A stretch of DNA of 49,531 bases, filler included, from Catajapyx aquilonaris (GCA_000934665.2; 2 parts of 2 records of this genome joined end to end with filler, not necessarily neighbours in it); one strand, 5' to 3'; shown: positions 1-38,883, numbered from the whole stretch's first letter. The notes: generated from the sequence alone by a model not told the origin. Numbers and translations: made by a program.

Positions 1-2527
1 TTGGAGACCTCGTGAGCCCTAACCAGGCCTCGTAAAGCAATATGACCTTCACTTCCATATACTGGTTTTTCACAAGGAATCTCGCTACCTGAAGCTTGTC
101 CGCCATTTACCGACCACCCTGTATAACTGGCCAATATACAGAGGGACAATTTCCGGCACGTGTTCAGAGCAGCCTCCTGACACCTCCACCTTAGCATTAT
201 GTACACCCATGTGCCATTAGCTCATCTCCCCCATCAAGGGGGAGTTTGCGCGTCAGAGCTTGTCTAGTCCCAACTGGGAGCCTTTGATCGTGACAGTGCC
301 AGTGGTGGACAACTACAACCTGAAGCCTCCCAAATAAGGAGAAGAATGCAGGCTTCTTATGCCGGCATAATACACAATAATAGTGCAGTGCTGCTGAGGC
401 CTGAACACATTAAAATCATGCTTGAATTTTGCTTGAATTGAAGAGAGTGCTTCTCTGCCACTGGGACTGCCGCTGTCTAAGGCCCCTGGTTGTGACTACA
501 CCAGCACCAACTTGGCAACTCCCCCTGGATGGCGGGAGCATGCTAAGATCACACAAAATGGCAGAGAGTGTCTGGACTGGAGTATAAGACCGTGTTTAGA
601 GCTATCTGACCCAGTGAAAGGTTCACTTCAACCATTGAATGTATGTAATCATCACTGATGCCAATGACTGAAATTAAATTGATTCAAAAGTGAATTTCAG
701 CAGTACTGGTGAAGGAACAACACAAATCTGTTTCTGGGATTTGGATAAGGTGTTTGGAAAGTGTGATGCAAGCACCTTCTTGTTGTATGTTAATACAATT
801 GTGTGTCGTAATTGTGTTAATATGTGTAGGCCCTACACTTGGACAACACTTTTAGCACTTTACATAATATGTAATCAGCACAAAGGGTGATAGTGCATGC
901 ATATTAACTTTCCTGTTTCTTTCTGGCTATGTACCTTCACTGTTCTTTTTCATTCAGAGTTATAGGTACACTGGAATGGCTATGGGTGAATTCCTTTATC
1001 CAACTCACCAAGGGAAAAAACTCAGTATAATTGGACTTTGGTCCTATCTTCTTGCTTATATGTAAAGGAACATCAACAGGGTCATCAAGTGAGGAGAGAG
1101 TCAAAAACTTGGAAGTGACTAGGCTACATTGGTATAGTTTTTTTTTTTTTTTTGCTAAATTATATTTATTGATTTGTGTTTGGTTAAAAGTAGTAGCAAT
1201 GCCAGCACCATATGAATAGTTTTGCAATTATTTTGTAATATGCTACGCACTCTTGGATGTGCTAGTGCTCAAAATTAATGCATGAAGCATTTAAAATTGA
1301 CAGATAATTATAGTGGTTTCATATTCAGATCCCAAAGTGGTAGGTTCTAAGAGTCAATAATGTATTTAATTCTTCCATGTTGTACCCTTCTTTTCACTAT
1401 TATAAAGTTCTTGTGATCAAAAAGTATATTTGTACCTCATTAGCTCACAACACTACTATTCTCTGGTTTTAAAAAGTTGTAAATGACATCACCCATGATG
1501 ACATACACTCTCTTATATTGGTGCACTAGGCAAAAGGGAAATGATGTGGTGGTGATTACCTGAGAGTACTAAGAGAAATTATTAAAGTGACAATTAACAT
1601 CTAATGAAGGCATTGTCATTTGCAACATCTGGTCAGATTTTGACCTCTGTGGGGATTTGATGGGCACATTCAGCACATCGCATTAGTGAGCTTTATGGGG
1701 ATGACAGCCCCTTTCAGGGGATTGCATGCAGTATTCATTTAGCAAGCATCAGCTCATTAATGTACCATTTTAATGGTTCATGTTGAACCTCCTACATGTT
1801 TGCCACACTACAGCAATAAGTATTAATTATTTAAAAATATAGCTATGCATTTTAATACCATTTACATTAGTTGGAGTACTTGGTGTGATATATTAAATTG
1901 CAGACTTGAGAATCCATAAAATTTATTAAGCTTCATTAGCATAACTAACAGCTTGGGATAATAATAAATATATTTTCTCTAGATAATTTGAAACATCTCA
2001 GCAAGGAACCTCGGCAATCAATTAAAAACAAAATAGCTCTACTTACTGAGAACAATGTGAGTCATTAAACTTTCTAATCAAAACAACAAACTAGAAAACT
2101 CTAATGAAAGAACAATATGAACACTATCAACTGGCTTGAAGCCATAAAACCATTTTATAATTAGAGAACAAACTGGAAAATGCTCTATGAAATTAACACC
2201 ATAAACTTCAAAACAGCTATCTTGTCATGGAACAACACAAATAATAAAGCAAGAGATAAGAGAATGAAATGAAATATTTAGCAGTTCTTATTAGGGAACA
2301 TTAATAGCTCAAGAGAGAGGCAAAGTTCATTGCATTGCTCATGAAGGAACATAAATATCAACTCGGTCTTATCTGTGAATAACATTATGAACTGTGAGGA
2401 ATGGAACCCATGAAACTCTTTGAGAACTGTTTAAGATGATATTCACTGGCAACTATAAATAAAAATATGTTATTTTGGTTATATGCCCAAGCGAAACAAA
2501 CAGCAGCATTCCTATCTGCACATATAA

Positions 2528-5500
2528 TTAATACGGTTTGATTTTGAGGCCAGGGTGAAGGGGCTTGAGCTTAACTCGCCTAGAAAGCCCAAGCCGTAAC
2601 TTGCTTGCAGTGCTTCCTTCTTCCTCTTGAACAGTGGGTTGGAGGTCCGTCGACCATTGAAATGTATTTTTAGACATTTCTTTCAAAAGACAAAAAAATG
2701 TGTTATTTTCTACTTGGACAATTATTCTAAGTACTGCTTTAAAAACCCACCTTTTCTAGGAAGCGGATTGCAAGCATCAGTCTGGCCACCACTGGATGTG
2801 GAATGATGGGGGGAATCCAAATTCGTGACACCTGGGGAAGTGGAAAATATGATTTGTACCATCAGATAGGAGGATGTACTATAATGCTCAAAAAGATGGA
2901 GGTGATTTTGCATTTGAGTTCAATGCAAAATTGTCTCCCATCTTTTTGAGTGATATACATAGTACAGTAAAACATCTAATTATCACATTGCAGATATAAC
3001 TACTAATATGTGTAAGCATTGCTCATAAATGTACTAATTCCAACTAATTCTGTAGTGTAATTTTGTTACTCTTAATGAGAGCATCTGAAGCAACTTCCTT
3101 GTTACTTCCTGGATGTCATTCAGGCTAAACTCAAAAGAAATATCGTAACTTTTTCAAGACATAACGAGATTATTATCCACCTTCCCCTTCTACTGCCCTT
3201 GCCAAATACCATTACATTAACTCACTCTTCCCACTTGGGGTGATTTATGCCTATTGAGCATCAGATTAATTTATGTAGAGAAATAATAATTTGCAACCCA
3301 CGTCTACAGTGAAGTGCAGTGTTTGAATTAACCATGATAACAATACCAGTGTCAGGACTGTTGGTGTGCGATTCTTGATCATCATGATTGATGACGATGT
3401 TCCTAGCTGGGACTGCTTGATCTTTCTGTTGCAGCTGAGCAGACTGTAATGTTCCTTCCATCCTTTCCTCTGTGTTGGTCCATGCATCTTTGTAATGAAC
3501 TCTTATCCCATGAAGATCTAGTGCATCCAGCAAACGTTCATCTTTGTCGGCAGAATTATCTGATGGAGTTGGTGTCTTCTCTACAGGCACAATTTGCTCA
3601 TGATCTCTCTCTGAGATCAACTGGGAATCTACCATATGGTCTATGTAGAGATCCAGGTGTATGTCTTCATCATATTGATGTGACCCTGGCATGAAAGCTT
3701 GAGTTTGGATGGTGAATTCCTGCATCTTGTGGTTTTCCTGTTGGTTTTCTGAATTGATGGAGTCATCCACATCTGATAGGTCTTCAATATCTCTAAGGAC
3801 CTCCACTGTAGAAATATAATAAATTTGTTTTGTAACAACTGATCAGAGATATAAGTGTGCGTACATGTACTTTCACAGTTTAGTTGTCATTGTCCTTCAA
3901 TTTAGGAAAGTGATAATCTGATTTAACCCTACGATGGTGATGTGGGAACTTCTTGTGACCGAGTCACATTTTTTGTTATAACTTGGGAAATATAGCACAT
4001 TTGGACTTCATCTTTTAAACAATCTTGGGTTGATTCCTTCTGAGATGAATGACATTTAGTTTATAAATTTTGAGCAGATAGTAGGCTACAATCGTTAAAA
4101 AATAAATTATGCACTGATGCGTATTTGGGGCCATAATGGGGCCCACGTCACTGTTGGAGGGTTGAGAGAGCCTTAGCCATATTGATTTAGTAGTTTTGGC
4201 TACAGAAAATGAAAGTAAGAGAGCCTTATCGTTCTGTTTTTACTCCATTGAAAGATCTATCATTCACTCGATCCAATATACTGCATGTTCTTAATTTAGC
4301 AGTTTCAATTTGTGGACTTCCACTTGTCAAGTTGGAACTCCTTTGGCTGTCACGTTTTAGTTGGTCAGAAGAACTAATGGCTAATCTTCCATGGTAGTGA
4401 TATCTCAAGACTTTAAATGTTAGTTTCATTTTTGGAATTGCTGAGTCATTGTTGCGTATGGTGAAGTCACTACTATTTCTGGGTGCATCAATAATAGTTT
4501 ACTTCAGTTACCCTCAGTATTCTTTGCACAAGAAGTATGAAGGGGTTAGTGCCATAACGTGCTAAGCCACACTTTTGTGTTTTTTGAGCTTGCACGTGTC
4601 TGAAAGTCCCACCATCGTGCTTCACAAGTGGGCATCACGTAGTTAGAAAAATTCCCCATAGATCACGAGAAAATCACGAATAATGTTCCTTGTTTTGTAT
4701 GATTTGCCATGTTAAGCCAAACTTTTGAAAGCCCATATCTCAGAATGAAGGTTTTGTGGCTTAGCACGTTATGGCACTAACCCATTCATATGCTTCCATC
4801 ACATGAATGTATTCACAGGCATCACTTTCAGGGCAGGTGGTTTCTATGTCAATACCTGTCAAGAAAATATTAACTAGGCAAAGTTGAGAGAATAAAAATA
4901 CATTTCACATACCGGTACTTGACTGGTTCTTGCTAATGTTCTTAGCTTCCTGTAGAGAAGATGCAGTAACTAGTCCTGGTGAAGCAAGTACTTCTTCCTT
5001 TGCTGGTGTCAGCTGACTGCCTTCATGCACATTCAATACACCCTGGGTATTGTTGGGTCCTTGAGGCATTGGAAATGTGGAATTTATGACTGAGACATCT
5101 TCATATTGCATTGGTAATTGCATCTCTTGTTCATTGGATGGCATGGGGAGCATGTCTTCTGCCATTTCTAAGGCAGGGGTACTTTTAAGTGCAATATCAT
5201 GAGGCATGCATGTGTTGTCAGGTGAAGCTGTAATGGTTAACTTGGGAAGTACCAAATCAATGTCTTCAATTTGGTTTTGTTTTCTGTTACTGTCCTCAGA
5301 AATGGGCATGGACATGCAGTAACTCTCAAGTTGGCTGGTGGTATTCAGCTGAGTTTCTTTGGTAGCATCACAGGTGTTTGTATTGCTTGGCAGGCATTTC
5401 ATATTGTTAAGATTAGCATAATCTTCCAAACACGTTTGATCTGTTCCTTCTAGTTCATTTAAGTGATGGATGATATCATTACAAGTTGAAGTATCACACT

Positions 5501-8500
5501 CTGGGTCAGTAGTGACACTTGGGCCACTGTCAGTGGATGTCAGCATTGGTACTGAATGTTGAGTGACAAGAGTGGCAGGACTACGCTGAGTCACTATGTA
5601 TGTGATTTCTTCCAGTATAGAAATTACCACTTTCTCAGTGCTTGCTCTGGTGTGTTCTTCCTGGTTCATATTCATCTTTGTAACATCTTCCTGTTGTGAG
5701 GATACTTCCGTGGATTCCAGAGATAAATCTGTTGCTTCATCTAGGAGTGCAAAATCTCTCAGATCTGCACTCACCTCATGGTGGTCATTTTTGTCAGTAC
5801 CAGCTTCCATACCAACAACTTGACTACCATCGGGTTGCACTGTTATGGTAGAATGGTTTTCTGGTTCTTCATTATTTACTGACAAAGTTTTCTTCGAGGA
5901 GTCCTGCACATTGTCTTCTCTCTGTACATTTCCTGATTTTTCAGGTTCTTCTTGAAAACATGCTTCAATTATAGGAGTGTCACTCTCGTAAGGACAGTCT
6001 GTGCCCATATTCACTGCTTTTGGAAAAGAAATCGAGGGCTCAGTAGTAGTCAGCATCTCTGTTACTGCATTAGGCCCATTGCCGTTATTTTCCACAGCCA
6101 CACAAGCAATGTCCTGCATGGGAGTAACGTCTGAGCACCTTCCTACACTCACTTCTGGAAAACATGAGTGTTCTTCCTTGCCTACATAAGGCAGGCTCAC
6201 TCCGATGTGGGTATCTTCTGAAGTGCTGTCGGTTCCTGCAGCAGTTGATTTGACATCGCTAATGTCAGTGACTGAAACTACTACGTCATTTTCCTCTTTT
6301 TTGTTAGCTGCAACTTGAATGGTTTCAGCATTGATTTGGTTTGTGCAGGAGGCTGGTGTAGCTTCATCTGGTTGCGTAGTACTGGTACAAATATTTTTGT
6401 CTTCTTCATCTAAGTCATTAGTTTCACAAGGTGAACTGTGAGTCTCAGCAAGCCTTTTATCATCAATCAATTCACTGTCTAGTAACACAGAATCTGTGAC
6501 ATTTTCACATCCATTCTGTAGGGCAATACCATTATCTTCTATTTCCATGTGGCTCATATTTGGTACCATTTGATTGGTCAAGTTACATAGTGTGCCAGGA
6601 GTCTTGAACATGCCCATTTGCAGAGCAGTTGCTAATTCAGATATGTTTTGATCGGTTGTACTGTCACATTCTGCACCCATATTCATATCCTCCTTTGGCA
6701 GGGCGTAAGATTCATTCCCTGACATTGCATAATTGAAAGTGTCCTCAACTTCTGAACTTGGCATGTTGGAGGTGGTGCTTACTTCTCGGATCAAGAATGG
6801 TGGTACATCTCCCACTTTTTCGCTAAGAATCAGACAACGATGACAGTAACATTATTTAAGTAATAATAACAACATTCATAAGATAACATAACATAACATA
6901 ATAAGAAGACATTGCTATGCTGTATGTTTAACCATTTAGCTCACACCCAAATTGCCTGAAATGTCATGTAGTACAGTACAACCCCAAGTCATGTTGCTGG
7001 CCTGAGGCAGGGAAGAAAAGGAGAGGAGGGAGTTCTATAAATGGTTAGGCTTTTTTCTGCTTCTCATCATCTCACATTTTATGGGTGTACTTGGGATCAG
7101 GAGTACCAACTTGAGACAGGAATGTCCATACCATTTCAACATGTTACAGAGATGTGAGCTAAATTATGAAGCATATGGTGTACATGTATTATGTTGTCAT
7201 TGAATATATCATATTTATGTATGTCATTTTCTAATCCTCTGTTATTAGAGGAAAAAAAGTCTTCTCTAAGGTGATATAAGGGATGCTTTCCCAAACAATC
7301 AGCTCACGTCATGATAATTTTTAATGAGATTGATTCTAATAATATTAATGAAAAGTGAAACTCAGTTTTTGCGTATTTGACCCGAAATCTGGTTTGGATG
7401 ACATGGTCTACATGTCCTTATAAGCTTGGTCAGGGATTATTTGATTAACTCTTATAATTCAGCACAGTTATTTATTTTATTTTATTTTATTTTTTACCCT
7501 GTGATAAGGCTGAGCCTTTTGAGGGGGGTGGAATACAACCATTTCACTCCATTTTCCTATATTAACTTCATTCACCGGTGCAAGGAGTCAAGGATGTAGG
7601 GTAGGGATAGGGATTTTTGGGGAGGGAACATTGGTACAAGTGCAATGTCGATAAAGGGGTCATGTGCTGTTCCCCAGGAGGTTAGGTTGCCAGACACCTC
7701 CTTGGTGCAGGTCAGAGACCCTCCTGATGCAGGTGAAAGGAAAGTTCCCCAGGCAGGGATCGAACCTGGGGCCTTTCACTCAGCAAGCCGAGACGTTACC
7801 ATCTCGGCCATCTACACCTCCCCAAATATTCCAAAAATAATTCAGCATAGTTTTGAAGTTTCATTGCTACCTGTGAGAAATATTGATTTCCCAAACAACT
7901 GGACAACCCATACCCATGATCTACACTGGTCATCTAACATAACTAACCTGAAGCATTTCATTCGTTTGAGAGGGGGCATCATATCTCCAGACTCATCATC
8001 ATCATCACTGAAGTGATGCTTAGGGATGCTAGAAGGGAGATTCTCAGTCTTCTCACTACAGAAATCTGGAATGGAGAAGAACAGCATAATTATTACCAAC
8101 ATTATTTTGCTCCAGTTCCATTCAAATTAGAACTTTTTGTGGAAGCTAATATTTTATGATGCAATACAGACACAGTGTGTTAAAAATTAATTGTTCATAG
8201 CGGTTAGCAATTTTGAGTCACTAGTAAAGTGACTTTTAAGCATTCTTAAGGGTTATCAAGAATACAGTATTTGTTGGTGACCTTAGGCCTGGAATTGCTA
8301 TATTTGAGATTATGATGCCTTTGCAGGGAATATCCCATTTAGAAGCACTGCTGTGGTATTTGGTAGCTCAGTTATTTGCCTCATGTGTAGCTATAGGCTG
8401 ATTTAGGTTTAACATGTCAATGATAAATGCAATATTATTTTGCAGTGTGTGCAAGCTATGTTACAGAGGCTCTTATGAAAAGAAAAAACTGGCTAGAATA

Positions 8501-10777
8501 AGTTTAAAAAAAATAGTTACCCATTGGAGAGAACGGAGCTCTATTGGGGGGGGCGGGGGGGACCACCGTAATTGCCTTTTTTTTTTAACTAACACCTGTG
8601 CAATGACTAAAGGACATGGTGTAGGGATGGGTATTTTTGGGGAGGGGGGTGCAGGTGCAATGTCAGTAAGCGGGTCATGTACAGTCCCCCAGGAGGTTAG
8701 GTTGCCAGATACGGCAGAGACCCTCCTGACGCAGGCAAAAGGGAGCTCCCAGGCGAGGATCAAACCTGGGACCTTACACTCAGCAAGCGAAATGTTACCA
8801 TCTCGGCCACTACACCTCCCTGATACAATAAGATATTGTGATAAGAGTGGTGCACTTTCAAGTCCCCAGAGGATATGATCTATGGCAAGAAGTTATAGAA
8901 AATAATTTATTGCATGAGCCATCACATTTTTAAAAGAGACCCATTGGAATCATAAATCAGGGTCACATACGTATGCATACACATCCTAGGATTTTGTTGT
9001 TTCTCTTAAGCTAGTGTAAACAAGCCATAACTTATTTGCCTACACCAGCCCACTTCAAATGGGGATTTATTTGTACCTGCAGTTTCCTGCATTCAGACTA
9101 CCAACATATTATAATGATATTAATTGAAAAAATATGGGAATCAATTAAGTAGTAACAGTATTGAAGTAGTAGTGATTGTAGGAGTACCAATACTAATATT
9201 TAAAATAGTATTTTTTAATCATGGGTACTAATTTTGGTACAGTACAGTACCATACATCACACAGACCTTGTGTTGCACAGGGACCTTGTATATATTGGCT
9301 GAGTCCATGTGTGAAGGAAGGGTGATGCCGTGATTGGTGGGGCAATTGCAATGTCAACACTGGGTGATGTATCCCACCGGAAAAGATGAAACTATAGAAA
9401 GACTCCAATTCCACTTAAAAACCTGAATTTAGGTTTAGTTTGGTTTGTTGGAGGCAGAGGGTAACTGCAGGCTGTCGGTGAGCAGTGCCTTACTAGTTAC
9501 TAGATCACTATGCCATTCTTGGAAGTCACATGGTATATGAGTGTCAATGAGGACAATTTGTCAGTAGGCTACACTGGGCATCTGACCATGGCACTGATGT
9601 TAAATACTGCTTGCTGTGCCCTGTGCATATTTCTTTTTTTTTATTATTATTTTTTTTTATTGTACCCCGTTGGGAGTTAATTTCCATTAGGGGGGTGGAA
9701 TTACCACCATTTGGGTGGAACTGGTGTACTGTGTGATAGTACTTAGTGTGTTCCAAGGGTAGGTAGGAGGGGATGTGCAAAGTGCGTGTGCACAGACGTT
9801 GTATTTGCCGTTTTGTGAACTCCCCCGGGTGGCTTATGTGCAAGGATCGCCACCCGAAACGAAGCCAGAGACGGTCTCACTCTGCACGAAAGAAGGTGGG
9901 ACCCCGGGTGGGGATTGAACCCGGGACCTTAACTTCCGTGGGCGCACGCGTTACCACGGCGCCACTCCGTCTCCCGCCCTGTGCATATTTCTCACGTGTT
10001 ACTTGAGTTAAATCATTTACTCAAACACATGAAAAATATTCCACCAATTTTGTTCATCTGCTCCTTGTGACTCATGGCAGCTGTGGTCCAGCAAGTCTCC
10101 AAGGTGAGCACTTCATCTTGGACCCAGGTTTCTTTAAGATATGATAATACGAAATTACCTTAATTGATGCGCTTTGCCTATTTCTAATCACTACGGAGAT
10201 AATGTGTTAAGATTTAACACCTGCAGTACATAATACGGGTCATATATCCTGTGTATCGGATGACCTAAGTAAATAGCAATGGAGGTTGGCGTGACCCACG
10301 GCATGAGCTACTGCTGACAGTGAGAGGGGGGTTTCAGTTTCCAAATGAAGGCGAAGAATGACTTGGCGTGTACAGACATGTGTGTGACGTCATTCGAACG
10401 ATATGGGGTCAATGACCTCGATCTCCGCGCCTTGGTGTAGCAACCCATCTAATAATTATAATCTGCATCAATGAAATGGCGACACAACACACTGTACCTT
10501 GGTCTGTTTGGCTATCCGGATGGGCTGTTGCCTCATGGCCTCCCAGAAGCACATCGTTGGCGGCTGTGGTATAATGATTCTTCTCCGCTTCCCTCGGCAG
10601 CTGGTGGTAGCCATCATCAGTACGATCAGTCTGGATGACACTTATCATTTGCCTGGAATGATCAGGAATGTCTTGGTCGTCCGACGCTGGTGGGAGAGGC
10701 GTCGGGACGTGTTGCGACTTCGGTGTCATCAGGGTGAAGCCTCCCTTGTCCGCCACATCGTTTTGGGAATAGCCCAT
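2528..10777 (-). CDS. Large acidic, low-complexity protein (~999 aa) with C-terminal RAD51-interaction motif (RAD51AP1/RAD51AP2-like); exons 10777-10498, 8065-7948, 6822-4913, 3805-3347, 2831-2751, 2679-2528
   Basis: Six exons with GT-AG boundaries and consistent phases (1,2,1,1,1) sum to 3000 nt with no internal stop. The last exon reads EMSKNTFQWSTDLQPTVQEEEGSTASKLRLGLSRRVKLKPLHPGLKIKPY*, matching the remembered RAD51AP1 C-terminal motif LRLGLSRLARVKPLHP. Start codon uncertain. Confidence 0.75.
3927..4161. mobile_element. Degenerate piggyBac-like MITE
   Basis: TTAA|CCCT...AGGG|TTGA ends with imperfect ~20-bp TIRs (ccctacgatggtgatgtggg vs ccctccaacagtgacgtggg). Confidence 0.5.
4226..4855 (-). 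pseudogene. Degenerate (pseudo)exon of the RAD51-motif gene, interrupted by a MITE
   Basis: In-phase acceptor ttcttgacag|GT after a 57-nt intron gives GIDIETTCPESDACEYIHVMEAY. Then come the MITE, several stops, and a same-frame coding-like stretch ending ...NGVKTER* with no canonical donor. Confidence 0.45.
4539..4787. mobile_element. Sola-like MITE
   Basis: 33-bp TIR GAAGGGGTTAGTGCCATAACGTGCTAAGCCACA (1 mismatch). Flanks GTAT/ATAT are consistent with a 4-bp AWWT-type TSD. Superfamily inferred. Confidence 0.65.
7468..7823 (-). mobile_element. tRNA-derived SINE, family 2
   Basis: Minus-strand A box TGGCCGAGATGG and B box GGTTCGATCC, AT-rich tail at 7468-7495; close paralog at 8577-8820. Confidence 0.8.
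8577..8820 (-). mobile_element. tRNA-derived SINE, family 2
   Basis: A box TGGCCGAGATGG, B box GGTTTGATCC; aligns with 7600-7823. Confidence 0.75.
9635..9978 (-). mobile_element. tRNA-derived SINE, family 1, full length
   Basis: A box TGGCGCCGTGG, B box GGTTCAATCC, A-rich tail; flanking direct repeat GCCCTGTGCATATTTCT at 9618-9634 and 9976-9992 (TSD). Confidence 0.88.
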
Positions 10778-12859
10778 CGCGGAGGCTGTGTCGGGCGATG
10801 ATATGGGCGGAGTGGTCCAGAGAAGAGCCCGGCAGAGTATGCAACCCGCCGCGCTCTAGTGCTGGATGGCAGGGTTGCCCACAGGGGTTGCCCCTCGAGC
10901 CTGACCGAACTGTACCCTGCGGGCAGCTGGTTTGAGGGCGGGAAAGGAGGGAGGGCCGAGAGGTCAATGTACGACGGATGGAACGTTCTGGAAGGATATG
11001 GGGGAGGGAAAAGGCGCCAAAATGTCATACCCCATCCATCCGCAGGAGGGCAGCACTGGGCGGAAGCTTCCAATGTCGTTGCTGAGGTAGGATGACGTAT
11101 AGGGTAATTGGGTTGCCATGTTTCATACGGTCGGAATCTATGTCTCCGAAAATTCCGCGGGAAATTCGCGTCTTCGGCCACAATAAGTTGTCCTCAGTGA
11201 ATTAATTTGGTAGGATATTTTCTGTCAGAGATTTTCCTCCTCAAGGGAGTAACCATATACATAACACACAATTTCCAGATAAACAAAATCGCTATGACTA
11301 GAATCTAGACCACAAAGCAAACTAATGAAGTCGGGTTTCAATGAGCTGGACCGTCCCAAAGTGGGGTGGGGGAGGGGGAGGGGAGGGTAAAAGCAATTTG
11401 GGAGGATGGGAGGGGGAGGTAACGGGAGAATCCCGAGAAAACCGCACGAATACGGAAATAACCTCTTGAAACTCCTGATCATGCAAACTCCAGCACATTA
11501 CAGACAAATAATTAAAGTTAGTGTATTTAAAAAACGTTCCCCTAAAAGGCCCAAGGATGCCTATCACGCGGTACTCAACATACCAGTTCTTATTTCAGAA
11601 AACACACTCATATGGAGTGGCTAAAGGAACTATTTTCAAAAAGGAACTTTAGGAGCTGAGTAAATTGAGAATTGCTTGAGTAAGACCTGTGGTACAGCTT
11701 AAATCAATTGGGGAAGGTCTTACGTGCGCCTGCCTTGTTTCGGTACTTTCATTTCGCTGCGCCGCGGAGGTCTTACTACCCGTTTTTTCACTGAAGGGAA
11801 TGTTTTTGATCTAATTACATACAATAGCACATCTGTTTTCTGTGCCATGCTGTGTTGTACTGATTAGTGATGTACACTATTTCTGTTCTGTAATCACTGA
11901 ATTACTTAGCAGGTTAGCGATGAAAATCACAGTAGTGATGTAGTCCAATTACTATGCTACATTATTACTGTAATAAGTTACATTACCAAATAGTATAGCT
12001 GCATCCAATTTTGGGGGACAGAGCAATGATGGATTATAGAGCACAATATAAGTATGGCCAAGTTTTCATTGTTTATTTGTAGAGTTCACTTCACTTCCAA
12101 TAACGCCTGTACTCCCTGCCGTGCAGATTGTTCTCTGTTGCATGTGTAGCCTACTATAAAGTCTGATATATTTTATGTACTGTATTACAGTATATGAATA
12201 CATGACTACTGTTTGCTCGTAATAAGACTCAAGTATTGCATTGTGTGATTTAAATTGCACTCAACATTCTTTATTTTATATGTACAGTACATTATAATGA
12301 TCGGAAATGAGTATGCAATGTATGTTGCAGCCTGTAGGCCAATAGATAGTAATACGTACATAGTACAACAGTATATAATTTCTTCGATGTGCGCATTCGG
12401 GAAGCAATACAGGATCAGGATTTGAAACAGTAATGTAGTATTGTAAAAATAATCGGCAAGTGCATAACCATGTTGTTTATTACGAGCTTGCTCTGCTGAA
12501 CGTTTCAATAGGTATTTGGTTTTTAACTCAATAAAAAATGTAATTAATGAAATCACTCAGAGATTTTTCTCTGCAGCATCTATATACCTTTACGCCAACA
12601 CACCCACAGAAATCGTAGTATCGATTCGTATCTCTATCTCTGTGCAACACACCCCTTTGAATAATGTCGCGCACATTTTACGTAGTACAGTATTAGACTA
12701 CTTTATAATGCATACGTAGTCAGCCCAGGTCAGCCTTAGAATAGAAAAGGCCCTACTGATGTCACAAGTTTTTAAATTTTAATAATGGCACTGTTTAATT
12801 TAGTTGACATTCAATGTTTCTCATTATGGCACCAGAGCTATTATGATGCTGAATTGCAC

Positions 12860-13028: not shown

Positions 13029-15078
13029 CTACATGGCACCGTGACACTGGCCTCTGGCCAACATATTTACAAGCTCACTTCTTTTTTTCGCCAGATTCTT
13101 CAGGAATGAATGAATTCTAACTACGCTAGACTCGGCTTCTTTCTCCTTCATATCTTCTTGTCCAGTGCATGTTGATGGTTGATACTGCGTTTGTAAAAAT
13201 GTATCATCACATTAATGCCCACTGACTGCGTAATGTTTTCGTTACGAAAGCATCTCATTACCTTTGAATAGTGCTTGTGCAGCTGATACTTCAGAAGGAC
13301 GCCCACAAAAGCCCAAAATGAGTACACTGGCCACATCAGTTTGGAAAAGCACATGTAACTGTAAGAAGTCTGAAAAGAGACGAAAGTGTGTGTTATTGTT
13401 GATTTCAGCAATTTTCCAGTCAAAAATATTTACCTGCCACAACATATAGTCTGACAATCGCATTTCTCCAGAGGTCCTGACAAGGACGTCGACAGGAGGT
13501 AAGTCTCCAGTTAAAAGTGTGCGTTGCAGGAGATCTTCAGATATGTCAGATGATTCAATAAGGCCCAAGGATAATCCCTCTTTCAACTCCTGCATGGCTT
13601 GTATAATATCATAACGCCCTGTGGATAGTAGGGAGAAATACCAACCATAGGAGAGTACTTTATGATAGTCAAATGATGGAGGTAATCTTCAAACTGCAAA
13701 CTTATTAGATTCGTACCAGTGTAGGCGATCAATAGAACTAAAGTGAAAGTGGAACATGTAGTTGTTTCCCTCATGACCTGACCAATAAGCTTTTGAATGT
13801 CGGCAGGCAGAAGATCCATCTTGCCAAGGACAAGGAAGCGCACGCCTCTTCCTTGGTAATAATTTCTGAAATTGGTGCAAAAGTGAAATTTCGCTTTGTC
13901 ATTTCTATACTGCAGAGATACATGCAATGAAGGATAGTTACATGTTTAGGAGTATTTCGCGAAAGCTTGTCCGAATGAGGTCCAGCAGCACCTCAAGTTC
14001 TCTAGGGGATCTTTTGAAGTTTTCGATACTTAAGGCATAGGCGGAGCAAATTTTGACATTGGCTGCCAAGCACCATTCCACCAGCTCCAGCAACTTTTCG
14101 TACCTGTAAAAGATGAGGTATTTTGTATTTTATACAGGTCGAATTTTACGCGAGAAAACCGTAAAAACTTTTGAATTTTAAAACTAGGGGAAAAGATTGT
14201 GGAAACCTCTCCAAAAGTATAATGAAGCAAATATAGGGAATTTTCTTAGAAATGGATGCGGAAAAACTATAGAAGGCTGAGATCGACGGAAAGCGGGAAT
14301 TTTGTGTTCCTGTAGATGTGTATATGACATTTATTTTGTTACGACTGAGAGAGCTTCGCTTTCGTAACTCTGCGGTGGGTTACATGGGCAACAACAAACA
14401 TCCTTGTTCAGTCACCAAGTTTTCCCGCCTCCAAATCCTGCCTGTTAAATTTCGGAAAACTGCTCCATATATTATGCTAATGATGATGCAAATGGAATTC
14501 AAGTGTAGCGAAGGAAATCATGAGCCTACTCTCGTTGCCTTATATACTCTCCGCTCAATAGAAAGTAATTACAAATTCCTTAAATAGCAGCTGAAGAAAT
14601 TGCGAAATATGTAAACATCCCCTGCAGAATTTTAAGGTTTGTTGGGGACAGTGAAGGAAATGATAAAATACCATAAATGTACCGTTATTTTGCAATCAAC
14701 TTTCTAGAATTTACCGCAACTACATCTTACTTTCCTGACATATTTTCCGCAATTAAGCCCTCAAATGAAGGGCTCCATGGAAGAAGGGGGTAACTAGATG
14801 GGAATTCCCATCTACTTACCCCCTTCTTCCATGGAGCCCTTCAAATGTTCTGTGATTGACAGTGGTTTCTTATGCGATAAACACGGAAGACATAATAAAA
14901 ATGTAGTATACCCCTGCTTATGGCCGTAAGTGCAATCCAGGCCTTTGCTTCTAGCGAAGCGCCGATTTCCATCCATGATGAAACTGATATGTCTCGGTAT
15001 TTCCCCCTGGCGCAGGATCTGGAGGGCTGCTTCTTGCAGCCACGTCAAGGGTTTCTTCTCATTGGAATGCTTCTCCAT
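13029..15078 (-). CDS. DHDDS: Dehydrodolichyl diphosphate synthase (cis-prenyltransferase), 308 aa; exons 15078-14912, 14103-13942, 13865-13717, 13618-13434, 13369-13262, 13184-13029
   Basis: cis-PT motifs PRHISFIMDGNRRFA, GHKQG, YALSIENFKRS, AYTGR, DVLVRTSGEMRLSDYMLWQ, WP and C-terminal RIHSFLKNL. All introns are GT-AG, phases consistent, 927 nt. An acceptor at 15084 implies an upstream 5'UTR exon. Confidence 0.93.
14767..14842. mobile_element. 76-bp hairpin MITE (Sola-like) in DHDDS intron
   Basis: Near-perfect palindrome GAAGGGCTCCATGG...CCATGGAGCCCTTC (1 mismatch) flanked by a perfect AAAT duplication. Confidence 0.75.
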
Positions 15079-18000
15079 GTCATCTGAAAATGCAACAGAA
15101 TTCCGGTTATGCGTCAAACGTGGATGCGCAGACAACCACTGGAATGCAGAATAACACTTTAAAATCACTCTACCCAAGAGGCGCATACGTAGTTGAAGCT
15201 GACTTGAAAATTTTTGATTTCCCTATAAATGCAAACTATTGCTTCGATTGAGCGTACAGGCAGCAAGAACTGAGCGACTGTGTGTAGTGAATGGGCCAGG
15301 CAGTAATTTGTGTGGGATCTCCCCAAAAATGATTGATGACGCGGGTTATTAGGTTCACGTGTAAGTGTTTTTAAATCTACAGCATATAGGTAACACAGTG
15401 TCCCAATATGCAACTTCAGAACATTTCACTGGCATCTACGCTATAATAATAATAATACGAGTACTTATTACTTATTACTACCACCACCATTACTAATTAT
15501 TCCCAAAAACATGAAATGACTGGATTTAACTACCGGTACTGTATTTTTCTTCTCTCAGGAAATGATAGTTTACTCGTGAGATTGCGCCATATACCTGAGG
15601 CAGTTCCTGTCTCTGTGTAACTTCCAGTTCGCAAATCCAATGCAAATATCCTCCATCAGACATGTGAAATAATAATGTGAGAATGCCCTACTTTTTATAT
15701 ATTGAGTTGTACAGTACTAACACTAGGCAAAATGTATTCTTCATTTACGCCCTGCAGAAGAAACCATTAGAAACATGGCAAATTTTTTAAAGTTTGTATC
15801 ATTTCTGTAGTTACTACTTACAGACTCAAACATGTTACTTCGTGCATAAAAATTGTAGGCGTTTTAGTTGGAAAACAGTTACTAATTACTATACTAATGA
15901 AAACTGACAATACCAGTGCTCAGTGGTTCACTTGTGCTTATCCTGTGTCCCGCACTATATCCTCAGCCAGACGATCCTCTGGACCAACTGGTTGGGCAGG
16001 AAACCCTTCACTACCATGCAGCACTGTCGGCTCAAAGAGAGAGGCTGTAGGGGTGGGGGTAGGGAGAGCTTCCGGGACATAAAAATACATGTAGGTGAAC
16101 CGTCCCACGCTCAAAGAACTCTCATCTGTAAAGGGCTCTTCCCGCATTTTTTTGCTGACCGAGTACCGTTGCAATAGGCAGCCGGCCATTTCACCTTGAC
16201 CGAGAGAATGTACGGGTCCGTATATTGCAAGTGCTAGATGCGCCTCATAACCCCAATGCTCTCAAGTTTGTTCTAAGGTTTGTTTCAACAAACTTTCCCT
16301 CTCGCAATTTTTTCTTTCGCGGAATTTCTCTTGGGCTCGCGAAAGTAGAAAAGATTTTATTGCAAAAAAATATGTGCAAGCTGTAAACAATGTCGCTGCA
16401 TCATGCTGCTGATCAATGCATGTTATCATATTTGGTATTATTAATTAACCGAAATTCTCCATGCATTGGGCAATACTAATAGTTTATAAATCCTACATTG
16501 GCAGCATGTTTTATGGCCATCACTAGTAGTGTATGGGAATATACCGCAAAAATTAAGGACTTTTTTTCTTGCATGGGACATAACGGAAAGCTTCATACCT
16601 GTTTGGGGCTGGCTGTGGGATATCTGGGTGAGTGGTGTGACTCACAGGTGCATAAAGGATAATGGACCGCCTCAGTGAATAAACCGATCGGTGAGATTTG
16701 TGATTCATTGCCGTGTAATTTAGAGGTAACACAGCCATTTCCATCAAATGCAAGTGAAACTTTCATAATAATTATGGATTATAGGAAAAGCTCAGATAAT
16801 TTTAGAAAAGGTGAAACATTCTTCATCGCCTCATACTCGTATAGGATGTTTGCTTATTTTTGGATTAAAGTATTCAAATAACAAATTTAAACAGTCACTA
16901 GGATAGTCGACGTAGCTTGCATTGTGATATATGGTTATGCACAAAAAGGCGGTACACTTTGAATATTTGATATCCGAAGTCCTGCCATAAGAGAAAGAAT
17001 ATAAGCAGAAACATGTTATAGAGGCTTATTTACAAGGAAAATAACAACTTCTATCATTAACTAAAGGTAGCATTTCAGTACAAGAAATGTAAATTTTCAT
17101 TCTAATGTATGATGACAGCGTCACACACAAGTTGTGTTATACGTGTGAACGTGTCACAAATTGGGTTGATGCAATCAGCAATGAGGAAACCGTGCCATGA
17201 CATCGCCTTGCCCATTACGTGCTCCACCTTTTTCTACATGGTTGCATATGCTGTATAACATGGCATGGCGAGTCGCAATCTGGTTTGTCCTAAGCATTTT
17301 GACATATTATTCTGTTACGCGGGATTTCTGCCATGAGGTAACCGGATATGCGAATGTACCATACGTAAAAGAAAGGCCGATTCGCACGGTCACACCATTG
17401 TCTGTTGTGAGATAAGGAGAGATTACTGGAGGGATACAGTCCTTAAGGGCGTATTTTGCTCTGTACAGCGACTAGTGAGACCATCTGGGAGGCTTGTATA
17501 CACGTGGGTCAAGTTACATGGAGGAAAATCCTTGTTCTGATGTAGCAAGAAGACGTTCATTTTCCTAAGTTGAGCAATTGTTCCACTGTGCAATGTCGCA
17601 TGAAGAAAAAGTCACTTACCAACCTTCTTAAGCTCGGCCACTTTGAAAATTACTGTGTTAGCCACGTGTGCTGTTTTATAGCCGTAATTTTATGCAATAT
17701 AATTACTTTGGACTTAACTTATTCTGACAGCATGTGTCAGATTATACGACGAAGTTTCGTCAACGTATAATTAGGTAATAAGGATTGCGTGTTTCATAAT
17801 ATTTAGCTAATGTCCTACAGACGAAGATTTCGCGGATGGTCCCCCCCCCCCTTTTTTTTTTAATGGGAAGGAACCAGTGCAGCAATTATTCTTCTGGGCT
17901 AAGATGGATGGATGGCCAGGTAGAAGTGAAGAGAGTAATTTGAATTACAAATTAGTCCGTTAAGAGCTTTCCAATAGCGTGTGTTACTCACTCTACACTA

Positions 18001-25952: not shown

Positions 25953-26399
25953 TTATATGGGTAAATCAATACTTCCACAGTCTTGTGATCCATGCTTTTG
26001 CCTGAAGTGCTTCTGGAAGGCTTTGTAGTCAGCATAGACCTTCATGCAAATGTGGCAGGAGAAGATCTTCCTCTTCTCCCTAGTACGGGTCTGCTTGCGC
26101 TTTGATAACAATTTATTCTCGCCAATTGTCTTAGGGCACAAGTCACACTGAAAGTTTCGCTCCTTATTGTGGTTGAAACTTTTGTGATGCTGTAATCCAA
26201 CAAGCCATGCAAATGTCCTTCCACATATGTTGCATGCGTAGGGACGCTCTCCAGTGTGGATCCGCTCATGCTCCACTAAAGTGTTGCGATAACGGAACCG
26301 CATGCGGCAAGTGGAGCATTTGTGCGGCTTCCCCACAGCGTGATCCACTACGTGGTCGACATCACGGTCTTGCTCCACGCAAGTGGCACTGCCACTCTC
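25953..26399 (-). CDS. Terminal exon encoding a C2H2 zinc-finger array (3 intact fingers and 1 lacking His ligands); probable alternative last exon of ZF gene A
   Basis: Phase-0 acceptor ctcgccctgcag|GAG; fingers CSTC..HERIH, TGERPY linker, CNIC..HKSFNH, degenerate CDLC, CHIC..HFRQKH; no ATG-bearing first exon of its own was found. Confidence 0.8.
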   Translation of the reverse strand, partial: ESGSATCVEQDRDVDHVVDHAVGKPHKCSTCRMRFRYRNTLVEHERIHTGERPYACNICGRTFAWLVGLQHHKSFNHNKERNFQCDLCPKTIGENKLLSKRKQTRTREKRKIFSCHICMKVYADYKAFQKHFRQKHGSQDCGSIDLPI

Positions 26400-26479
26400 C
26401 TGCAGGGCGAGAGAAATATTTCCAATGCATACAGTATAGTCATAATGCGTTTTATTCCAAAAACATGCTTCTTCAGTAA

Positions 26480-26836
26480 TAAATTATAATAATTATTATT
26501 ATTATTGGGTTAGTGCACCTCCCATTTGTGGGCATTGGGCACGGTACCTTTATTTGCCTTTTCAGTTTTACAATGTACTGAAGGATTTTGGTCCTTTTCC
26601 TTAACGCCCGGGTACCACAAACGAGGGGGATGTGCGAAGTGCAAGTGCAATGTCGTTGCTTGGTCATTTTGTGAACTCCCCCGGGTGGTTAGTCTAGAGG
26701 AAATCCCACCCGAGGCGAAGCCAGAGACGACCCAACTCTGCACGACATGAAGGGGGGAATGCCCGGGCTTGGGATCGAACCCGGGACCCTTACATCCGTG
26801 GGAGTGTACATTTCCGCAGCACCACTCCGCCTCCGC
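26480..26836 (-). mobile_element. tRNA-derived SINE family 1
   Basis: B box GGTTCGATCC, shared core, (ATT)n tail. Confidence 0.8.
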
Positions 26837-27951: not shown

Positions 27952-30900
27952 TTAAAAAGGCGTTTCTCTATTATGGATCCTCATAATATGCTCTTTCACA
28001 GTTAACTTCCGACTAAATAATTTCCCACATTCTTTACATTCATAAGGTTTCAATCCAGAATGCACATCATTGTAATGTCTTTTCAAATTGCATTTTTGTA
28101 AAAAGTCCCTACTGCAAATATTACACGTGTAAGGCCTGTGTGAACTAGTGTGAACTGGAAAATGCCTGTTCATATGCCCCTTGCGTACAGATTTGTATGA
28201 ACACAAACTGCATGCATGCAAAACCTTCTTCTTTCTTTTGCCAATTTTCCTGGCGAGTTCTGGGTTTTCCTCGCCATTCGCTATTCCAGTTGGATGGTTA
28301 TCACTATTCTTTTCATTCAGGTTTGCCGATCTTCTTGCAACAACAGGACTACATTTTTCCTCGTCTTCTCCACTAGCAGGTCGTTTCTTTCTAGAAGTAT
28401 GTTTGGGCATCACACGTGTGTGTGACTCCAAATCTGATGACCCAGCCAAGTGTTGATCAGTTACATCATCATCCTGAAAATTTGAAAGCTCATAAGTTCA
28501 GGAAATTTCCAGGGCTGGATTTTCTTCAACTTAAAAAAAAAGGGGGAGCGTTATTATTTTGTCCATGGGACTTCATTGTCATTGTTCCTTAGGTCACTCG
28601 TAACTCATATAATGACATTTCATCTTGTCTGACCTTTGTTATTGACCTAGGGGCATTCCAAAAAACAAAGTCCGTGAAATATTGGTGTCATTCTGAATCA
28701 AATGGGCCGAAATTCGGCTAGACCATCTCGGATTTTTGTGAAAAAAATCACAGCTGTTCACACCTATGCCAGCCTATTTCATGATGTTTAATATCTAGTT
28801 TCAGCGATATTTTGCAATACAATGAGGAAGGGAAAAATCGCGAACTTTGGAAAGGGCCTGAAATGAGGCCTTTTTGGAGATTTTTTTCCGGTTCGTGGAA
28901 GTGGTCAAAGTCCAATAAACATAATATAATTCTATCAAATGAAAAGGAAAGACGAGGATAATGCGCCTATGGAATTAGTTTTCCTTAAAAATGTAACCAG
29001 AATAATGGACTTGGCATTCCGTCGGTCACATGTCCACAAATTTAGGCCCCTAAAAATTAGTGGGTAAATCTGCAAATATTTTCTTGCGAGACATGGATGA
29101 ACCACACTTAAAACTGAACATATTAAACCCTGTGTGGGGCACAACTCCTGTCATCAAAGATGGCTGCTCTTACGCAAATATATTGCTAATTGTTGTGGTC
29201 AAATTATTTGGACATGCGACTGAGCATGTGACCAATGGAATGCCGCGCACATTTTTCTGGTCACATTTGAGAGGAAAACAAATTCCACAGGCGCATTCTC
29301 CTCGTATGTCTCTTTCATTTGATGTATATGTTGATCGGTTTTTGACTATTTCCACTAGCCTAAAAAATTGTTCCAAAAAATACCTAATTTCCAGCCCCTT
29401 CCAAAATTTCGCTATTTCTTTTCGTCCCATGGTATTGTGCAATATGTCTGAAACTTGACCGGCTATATTTAGAGTACTGCGGCTTTCTGACTGCCCCAAG
29501 CTAAAAAAAGAAACGTTCAGAAAAAATGAAAGGTCATTATGAGTTACGAGTGCCCTAAGGAACATGGACATGCTATGAATACCTGTGGACAAAAATGTGA
29601 TTTTTGTTACGTAGTGTAAATCAGATCATACATCTAAAGAAATTATACGAGGCACATTCAGAAATGATTTACACGCTTTCTTTTTCCCGCTGAAGAAGTG
29701 GTCCTAGAAGTTCCATTATTCACCGCTAGATGGAACGAAACCTTCCCGAGCGTGCCACAAAAAATTGGACACCATTCGTCTCAGTTGCATCGTCACAGTG
29801 CGAAAGTAGTGCCCGTAACTATCGTCATGGACAACGTTGCAGGAGACTCCATGATGCGGATTCTGACACTTTCTTTGCACGACTCGTCACTGGCAATGAA
29901 TCGTGGTTCCACCATTGCCCTTCTCCAGCCAGTCCACCAGTAGGATGCCATTTTCATCACAAAAACACACCCCATCTGCTTGCCAGCGGATGGTGCCGCC
30001 TTGAATTTTTTTGGCCGTGGACTTCCATCGTGCTTCCACTGCATGGACTGTCATTTCTTCTCGCGCATGTGATGGTAGAACCACGATTTGTCTCCAGTGA
30101 TGAGTCATGCAAAGAAAGCGTCACTGATGAGTCATGACCTGTATTTTCACCGCCATCCGAATATAGCATTGCTCATTGACTTTAACAGAAAGTGCTCAGT
30201 GGTGCCCTCTTCAAGTGGTGCCCAGGGCACGTGCCATACTTGCCATACCCTATGCCTCCGAGGTATATGCACATAGAAAGTTATGCATTTTTCCTGCTCT
30301 TTTACAAAACACATGCATAAGCTTCAAAGAGGAAAAAAAAATCAAACCTTCTTTCCTGTCTGGATCATGAACTGATGATCTTTTAACTGCAAATCTTCAT
30401 TATCCTTCTCCATGTTGCTTCCATATTGCATGAGACTTTCTCTATCCTCTTCATCTTCACTTAACTCCAACTGCAGCTTCCAATCCTCCTGCAAATGGGA
30501 AAAACCTGATTAATGCCACAACATTTACCAATCCACAAGGCGCATAATATATGGCAAGCTATCCATAGCATTTTATCACATAAAGGATGTCTTCCAGAAC
30601 TAATTTTGCATTAACAATACTTACACTACATGCTTCATTTGCAGATACTAATCAAAAGTACGTGTAGTTCAGAAACACATCTTCACCAAGTATGAAATCA
30701 TTTATTAAGAATGAAGATCACAATGTACTTATAATCAGAGGTCCAACACTGACTTCTTCCCCTTTTTGAAGCAGAGTGACGTAATCAACTGTGGCCTTTA
30801 TTTATTTATCCAACATGACACTGGGTGGACTTAAAGGTACACGCCCACGTGAATTTCGCAAAGTGGTATTTTTTTATCCTGTCTCCAACCTAAATCAGCC

Positions 30901-36524: not shown

Positions 36525-38883
<2,359 letters not shown>

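Follow-up and report, generated by a model that had tools for sequence, protein, structure and literature searches.

A candidate gene of Catajapyx aquilonaris for a long acidic protein with a RAD51AP1/RAD51AP2-type docking tail

Does the genome of Catajapyx aquilonaris encode a RAD51 accessory factor of the RAD51AP1/RAD51AP2 type, and if so, what does its body look like? The question is raised by a 49,531-nucleotide (nt) joined stretch of this genome (GCA_000934665.2), referred to at its full length as the window, in which a predicted six-exon gene on the minus strand runs from 10777 to 2528 and ends in a sequence that closely resembles the RAD51-interaction motif of these proteins. RAD51AP1 is a DNA-binding protein with basic regions. 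In the literature found, RAD51AP1, RAD51AP2 and NUCKS1 are treated as vertebrate proteins. Name searches of the literature, supplementary files aside, found no arthropod or other protostome RAD51AP1 or RAD51AP2, searches on the Pfam names of the motif family found nothing relevant, and a tick paper that names RAD51AP1 does so in its reference list only. The first-pass annotation of this DNA had described RAD51AP1 and RAD51AP2 as characterised mainly in vertebrates. This description fits the literature found, but such tails are also common in metagenome contigs, and among the positively selected genes listed in a sea cucumber genome paper is one for RAD51AP1.

The evidence presented below makes it probable that the locus is a real gene for a protein of about 999 residues, which is strongly acidic, largely disordered and equipped with a RAD51AP1/AP2-type docking tail. 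The splicing, the expression, the RAD51 binding and the role in recombination of this gene are predicted from its sequence.

The C-terminal RAD51-interaction motif

The last exon encodes LRLGLSRRVKLKPLHP at 2599-2552 (-), which is followed by GLKIKPY and then by the stop codon, 7 codons past the motif. The two elements of the motif correspond to Site-M and Site-C of human RAD51AP1 (Table 1), and the spacer between them comprises 4 residues in both proteins. The arrangement LRLGLSR-4 residues-KPLHP is identical to that of the human protein (9qn8, 9qnc) at 12/12 core positions, and in both cases a short last exon carries the motif close to the stop. The human RAD51AP1 motif string given in the first-pass annotation proved correct against the PDB chain.

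The same assignment was obtained with profile and pattern searches. The Pfam family PF15696 (RAD51_interact) has a curated gathering cut-off of 25 bits; the search of the last exon that the first-pass annotation had suggested gave 30.9 bits (E-value (E) 3.2e-7) on its 49 residues, above this cut-off. The score was 29.5 bits on the 75-residue open frame around exon 6 and 31.3 bits on a 43-residue piece. A phmmer search of the last exon against PDB chains returned human RAD51AP1 as the sole match (9qnc_B, E 0.0097, and 9qn8_B). A degenerate DNA pattern for LRLGLSR-4 codons-KPLHP has one match in the window, at 2553-2599 (-), and was found in 0/100 dinucleotide-preserving shuffles of the window with 2 mismatches allowed. 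A protein search with the PF15696-bearing exon yielded 11 candidates, none at E<=0.01 nor at E<=10, and the last exon had no usable match in the ESM Atlas.

The residues that contact RAD51 are described in the excerpt of PMC12704761, the source of the structures 9QN8-9QNC. The Leu-His pair of KPLHP (Site-C, L345/H346) lies in a shallow groove of RAD51, and LRLGLSR (Site-M) enters a hydrophobic pocket at the protomer interface. Mutation of RLGL abolishes RAD51 binding, filament protection and the stimulation of strand exchange, and H346A weakens RAD51 binding. According to the excerpt of PMC1636435, which uses a 335-residue numbering, RAD51 binding is lowered by R316A, L319Q, L328A and H329A, and R321A, K326A and L322S are without effect on it. 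All four residues that are critical in this numbering (R316, L319, L328 and H329) are present in the window tail. These results support the assignment of the window tail as a true RAD51AP1/AP2-type RAD51-interaction motif, as judged from profile score, alignment to the human chains and retention of the critical residues.

Table 1. Positions of the motif, the exons and the other features of the window (a slash marks an exon boundary)
Feature	Position	Strand	Description
LRLGLSR	2579..2599	-	counterpart of RAD51AP1 Site-M (human 332-338); 7/7 residues identical to human chain
KPLHP	2552..2566	-	counterpart of RAD51AP1 Site-C (human L345, H346); 5/5 residues identical
Exon 1	10498..10777	-	280 nt; proposed ATG 10777-10775; following intron phase 1; predicted without homology
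Exon 2	7948..8065	-	118 nt; following intron phase 2; acceptor ttctccattccag/, donor CAG/gttagt; predicted
Exon 3	4913..6822	-	1910 nt, 636 whole codons; large acidic body; acceptor ctgattcttag/, donor CCG/gtatgt
Exon 4	3347..3805	-	459 nt, 153 codons; flanked by phase 1 introns; acceptor atatttctacag/, donor CTG/gtattg
Exon 5	2751..2831	-	81 nt, 27 codons; flanked by phase 1 introns; acceptor ccacttccccag/, donor AAG/gtgggt
Exon 6	2528..2679	-	152 nt = 2 nt + 49 codons + TAA; acceptor tttttttgtcttttgaaag/; carries the entire RAD51-interaction motif
KVGDVPPF	6795..6818	-	start of exon 3; sole xVPP in the protein
Candidate polyadenylation signal AATAAA	1922..1927	-	about 600 nt past the stop; read from the sequence
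DHDDS-type cis-prenyltransferase exons	13242-13688, 14812-15222	-	Pfam Prenyltransf, 56.7 and 26.3 bits
C2H2 zinc-finger open frames (three)	25953-26483, 27952-28497, 36694-37329	-	farther upstream
Harbinger/PIF-type transposase or domesticated copy	44116-45492	-	uninterrupted 458 codons; DDE_Tnp_4 145.8 bits, and HTH_Tnp_4

The gene model and the protein body

The six exons were spliced in a script by their coordinates (280+118+1910+459+81+152 nt = 3000 nt), and the resulting minus-strand model consists of 999 codons and TAA with 0 internal stops (stop at 2530-2528). All introns (5/5) are bounded by GT..AG, a pyrimidine-rich tract is located ahead of each acceptor, and the exons join in phase. 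The six phase-consistent exons of the first-pass annotation were rebuilt exactly, and its junctions 3347/2831 and 2751/2679 were found again.

The two large exons lie in long open frames. The longest open frame of the whole window, with 648 codons, contains exon 3, and exon 4 lies inside a frame of 193 codons; given the base composition of the window, the chance of such frames being open is ~4e-18 and ~6e-6 per start, respectively. The G+C content (GC) at codon position 1 exceeds that at position 2 in exons 1, 3 and 4, as is usual for coding sequence, with values of 0.65/0.42/0.58 for the three positions of exon 1. Of four control open frames in the introns and the 3' region, three do not exhibit this bias; the codon-position GC is taken as a weak indication because the fourth, 8473-8892, exhibits it as well.

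The 5' part of the gene is read from local signals. The ATG of exon 1 has G at both -3 and +4, and the donor of this exon is AAG/gtacag. Exon 2 brings exons 1 and 3 into a common frame and encodes an acidic DDDDE run together with a PPLKRMK basic cluster; at E<=0.01 it has no Pfam match. Splice signals, phase and open frame are the basis of exons 1 and 2, the weakest part of the model.

A repeat resembling a short interspersed nuclear element was observed three times in introns 1 and 2, at 7573-7788, 8593-8788 and 9903-9943. The copies contain a tRNA T-arm-like box of the GGATCGAACC type and share 66-88% identity over a 41-nt core, and two of them have ~120 nt more in common.

The predicted protein is strongly acidic. 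It has an isoelectric point (pI) of 4.3, with 177 D+E versus 65 K+R and a net charge of -112; K+R amount to 6.5% and Ser+Thr to 19% of its residues, and only two basic clusters are present. The last 55 residues contain 7 K and 4 R. In a charge-hydropathy analysis, the mean hydropathy of 0.419 versus a boundary of 0.454 places the protein on the disordered side, and 235/949 segments of 51 residues lie above the line. An AlphaFold2 model of exon 3 built from the single sequence has a mean predicted local distance difference test (pLDDT) score of 34.7, with 0/636 residues at >=70, which fits disorder without proving it and is weak evidence for an orphan sequence.

The body had no recognisable relatives in the collections searched. 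The frames of exon 1, exon 3 and exon 4 match no Pfam family at E<=10, and exon 4 has no PDB match at E<=1. For exon 3, nothing meaningful was found among PDB chains (two MtrB chains at E 0.4), and the ESM Atlas returned a BRCA1-fragment cluster at 0.76 only, below the lead level. The long acidic body of the first-pass annotation, for which our searches found no relatives, is thus upheld.

Relation to RAD51AP1, RAD51AP2 and metagenome tails

The most likely reading of these data is that the gene is a very divergent new member of the RAD51AP1/RAD51AP2 family. Its predicted layout resembles the meiotic RAD51AP2 more closely than RAD51AP1, with a long relative-less body, two small exons and the motif in the last of them. 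In the excerpts on the meiosis-specific vertebrate RAD51AP2 (Kovalenko 2006; Ma 2022), this protein is similarly long (human 1159 residues, mouse 976) and its body is described as without relatives; the excerpt of PMC1636435 reports no similarity of the human protein to anything outside its tail. The human gene consists of one very large exon and, behind it, exons of 27 and 49 residues. Its last exon encodes the whole RAD51-binding region, the C-terminal 33 residues of which suffice, and the last 55 residues are basic, as in the window protein. According to the excerpt of PMC8754306, mouse RAD51AP2 needs its C-terminus to bind RAD51 and to load on meiotic axes; in co-precipitation it was recovered with RAD51 and not with DMC1.

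The RAD51AP2-like architecture proposed in the first-pass annotation is supported for the long acidic body and the terminal motif; the predicted large exon followed by small ones, with the motif in the last, resembles the layout reported for human RAD51AP2. The gene may descend from either RAD51AP2 or RAD51AP1. According to the excerpt of PMC8754306, mammalian RAD51AP2 has SRPI in the motif, where the window tail has SRRV. Equal exon sizes were rejected as proof of RAD51AP2 orthology: the last exon of the human gene has 11 C-terminal residues that, according to the excerpt of PMC1636435, are absent from mouse, rat and chicken, and the motif lies at a different depth in the exon. The exact sizes are not relied on for these two reasons.

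In contrast to the window protein, human RAD51AP1 is a 364-residue chain with a second recombinase site, WVPP (Site-N), which binds DMC1/RAD51. The window protein, with its 999 residues and its net charge of -112, exhibits no aromatic-x-PP, no SVKSP stretch and no body similarity in the searches made. The peptide KVGDVPPF (Table 1) was tried as an FxPP motif and rejected because the aromatic anchor is missing. This anchor defines the short recombinase-binding peptides of BRCA2 (PhePP/TR2), FIGNL1 and RAD54B (FxPP); KVGDVPPF shares VPPF with the BRCA2 PhePP peptide, for which the version quoted in PMC11229353 served as the comparison. The stretch may represent a P-motif that has decayed or varied, or it may have arisen by chance.

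Further tails of this type were observed in metagenome contigs. A protein-based scan with the last exon gave 599 pattern matches, of which 0 were confirmed, and a scan of the contigs with the degenerate motif pattern gave 20 loci (L001-L020). A stop codon lies past the motif in 20/20 loci, at a distance of 6 codons in 16, 5 codons in 2 and 13 codons in 2. All of the loci are terminal exons of one kind, and these 20 further exons indicate that the tail itself is widespread. In tblastn, exon 6 of the window gene matches 20/20 loci at E<=0.004 and the other exons reach E>=0.16; with blastn the window had no match in any of the 20 loci.

The window tail was aligned with 14 of the 20 loci, after the identical or near-identical ones were left out (L009=L001, L015=L013, L016=L002, L017=L008, L018=L004 and L020=L012). 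Twelve invariant columns are fixed by the search pattern. At the free positions the window and the loci agree on Lys at spacer position 3 and on a hydrophobic residue at position 4, and x-L-K-I after HP in the window tail aligns with the NLKV and SLHV of the loci. All 15/15 tails match PF15696, and a profile of the window and the 14 tails hits human RAD51AP1 at E 7.9e-14.

A phase 1 intron, with 2 nt before the first whole codon, precedes the last exon in the window and in L001, L007 and L014, the three loci in which a clear acceptor was seen. This shared phase is a weak hint that the motif exon may be one old unit. Two loci depart from the layout of the other 18 and of the window: in L013, at 629-718 (+), and in L015, at 678-767 (+), the motif stands straight after the intron, preceded by a single open codon, and the tail extends 13 residues past HP.

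Upstream of the tails, the loci differ from the window gene. In six of them (L001, L002, L005, L009, L011 and L018), an exon encoding poly-Asp is located 1-2 kb ahead of the tail; in L001 it runs on into a Lys-rich stretch, and several loci have acidic-then-basic upstream exons, which the window gene lacks. An upstream open frame of >194 codons is found in 0/7 loci with >=2.8 kb of upstream sequence (L001, L002, L003, L005, L007, L011 and L018). A basic [FWY]xPP motif is present in 0/10 non-vertebrate-type loci with >=1.7 kb upstream. It occurs only in L007, the spacer of which, LARV, is the human spacer and which has a Site-N-like KKPKWIPP upstream. Two upstream frames of L001 gave no RAD51AP1 match among PDB chains. 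The frame at 902-1186 (+) of L001 contains ELQMALALSQSE. Among PDB chains this frame matches a ubiquitin-interacting motif peptide best (2d3g_P), without significance at E 0.58.

Several observations weigh against the assignment of the window gene to this family and against its RAD51AP2-like layout. The PF15696 match spans only positions 21-38 of the 39 profile positions, and the human-type SVKSP stretch before the motif, which forms the first half of the profile, gives way to an acidic stretch with GSTASK at its end, in which a single Ser aligns. An S-x-x-SP-x-x-G pre-motif like human SVKSP is present in the 14 other aligned tails except the short L013, and the window lacks it. No [FWY]xPP motif of the Site-N type was found in the 999-residue model. 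The human RAD51AP2 gene has three coding exons versus six in the window model, with its extra 153-codon exon and its two 5' exons. The motif begins 26 codons into exon 6, versus the 33 C-terminal residues that suffice in the excerpted human data, and the 27/49 match of exon sizes is probably in part a coincidence. Single-sequence folds are often poor for any orphan protein, which weakens the pLDDT of exon 3. Among 7813 word-sharing protein candidates, no relative of exon 3 was found at E<=0.001, and a full HMMER pass over 1.84 billion protein representatives gave 0. Finally, every junction of the six-exon chain is deduced from GT/AG signals, from phase and from open frames. The gene, which the first-pass annotation called unannotated, did not turn up in the protein collections searched, and these may lack the Catajapyx aquilonaris genome altogether.

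The missing relatives and the basis of the junctions also speak for the explanation that the gene model is wrong, either because splicing does not link the tail exon to the long frame and the exon belongs to a second gene or to other upstream exons, or because the locus is unexpressed. All junctions rest on the signals just named, exons 1 and 2 on nothing more, and neither large protein collection holds a match to the body. This explanation appears fairly unlikely. Directly upstream of the tail exon, and on its strand, are the two longest minus-strand frames of 2000-11500, which are connected to it by in-phase canonical joins. The open frames inside introns 3 and 4 are short (<=90 codons), and the frames of exons 3 and 4 are far too long for chance opening. 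The tail, moreover, retains all critical residues and a near-terminal stop, which argues for purifying selection.

It is distinctly unlikely, on the present comparison, that the gene is instead the RAD51AP1 orthologue of this lineage with an enlarged and acidified body. The tail is most like the RAD51AP1 type, as the 15-tail profile hit to human RAD51AP1 indicates, and the phase 1 intron before the last exon is common to the window and three loci. A fast-evolving body would be no obstacle, since the RAD51AP1-like L001 itself has no PDB match to the body of human RAD51AP1; for this reason the absent body similarity decides nothing between RAD51AP1 and RAD51AP2. The missing Site-N does not disqualify a RAD51AP1 orthologue either, because none of the ten non-vertebrate-type loci has it and L007 alone does. 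Against this explanation, the window protein is ~3x as long as the 364-residue human chain, no long upstream frame accompanies the tail in the seven loci with sufficient upstream sequence, and the acidic-then-basic exon of the six loci is absent from the window gene. The net charge and the presence of two basic clusters only are likewise at odds with RAD51AP1 as a DNA binder. The reading of the gene as a very divergent, RAD51AP2-like family member is preferred.

Docking on RAD51 and its meaning for the family

If the preferred reading of a RAD51AP2-like gene with a docking tail is right, the protein would be nuclear, and the C-terminal docking peptide would be its sole recognisable functional element. 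The Leu-His of KPLHP would anchor the tail on RAD51, and LRLGLSR would enter the hydrophobic pocket that the N-terminal domain of RAD51 forms with the adjacent protomer. The docked tail may then tether the long acidic disordered body to RAD51 filaments and stabilise these filaments. By analogy, stimulation or stabilisation is a more likely outcome of docking than blocking of the surface used by RAD54-type motors. Stimulation is favoured because the human peptide alone stabilises filaments: in the excerpt of PMC12704761, the 29-residue C-terminal peptide (C29) remodels and stabilises filaments on its own and improves RAD51 binding to single-stranded DNA (ssDNA).

A different outcome is known from yeast. 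The excerpt of PMC13748634 states that Hed1 and Rad54 use the surface of RAD51 to which RAD51AP1 also binds, the deep cleft included, and the excerpt of PMC12452912 describes Hed1 as a competitive inhibitor of Rad54 binding, with the Hed1 and Rad54 peptides unrelated to each other in sequence and bound in opposite orientations. Similar to the window tail, the Hed1 peptide and the N-terminal motif of Rad54 are short peptides in disordered proteins. Hed1 inhibits.

A broader reading that joins these elements is distinctly doubtful. In this reading, the long RAD51AP2-like form would not be a vertebrate invention, and the genome would carry a short RAD51AP1-like gene as well as a long acidic one; the separation of a DNA-binding stimulator in the soma from a body-tethering form in the germline would predate the protostome-deuterostome divergence, and the long form, devoid of a DNA-binding or FxPP site, may be a Hed1-like occupant of the RAD54 docking surface in meiosis. 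The least probable explanation, that this gene, docking in the same way, serves as a Hed1-like brake by occupying the RAD51 surface of RAD54-type motors, is in keeping with the surface and the competition reported for yeast, with a docking peptide that lacks an FxPP-type second site and with a body far too acidic to bind DNA, but it is improbable given that docking of C29 is stimulatory in the one studied case (PMC12704761) and that mouse RAD51AP2, according to the excerpt of PMC8754306, promotes rather than blocks crossover formation and matters for the XY crossover and male fertility.

The neighbourhood of the gene comprises several other reading frames (Table 1). The cis-prenyltransferase is the upstream neighbour on the same strand. 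Two of the zinc-finger frames, 27952-28497 and 36694-37329, have similar N-terminal parts and look like paralogues.

RAD51AP1 and RAD51AP2 form a known family, and the tail they share evidently exists outside vertebrates as well. The novelty of the window gene is that of a single putative member, very divergent, long and acidic. For annotation, the sole conserved part is a 16-residue motif, or ~23 residues with the C-terminal tail, within a 49-codon terminal exon, and such a short terminal exon is easily missed by gene finders and homology searches. If, in a genome of invertebrate type, the window gene does join a genuine tail to a long acidic body of unrelated sequence, the docking exon would be an old, portable module that lineages attach to fast-evolving bodies. 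The gene would then offer a non-vertebrate system for asking what these bodies do once they are tethered to RAD51 filaments.

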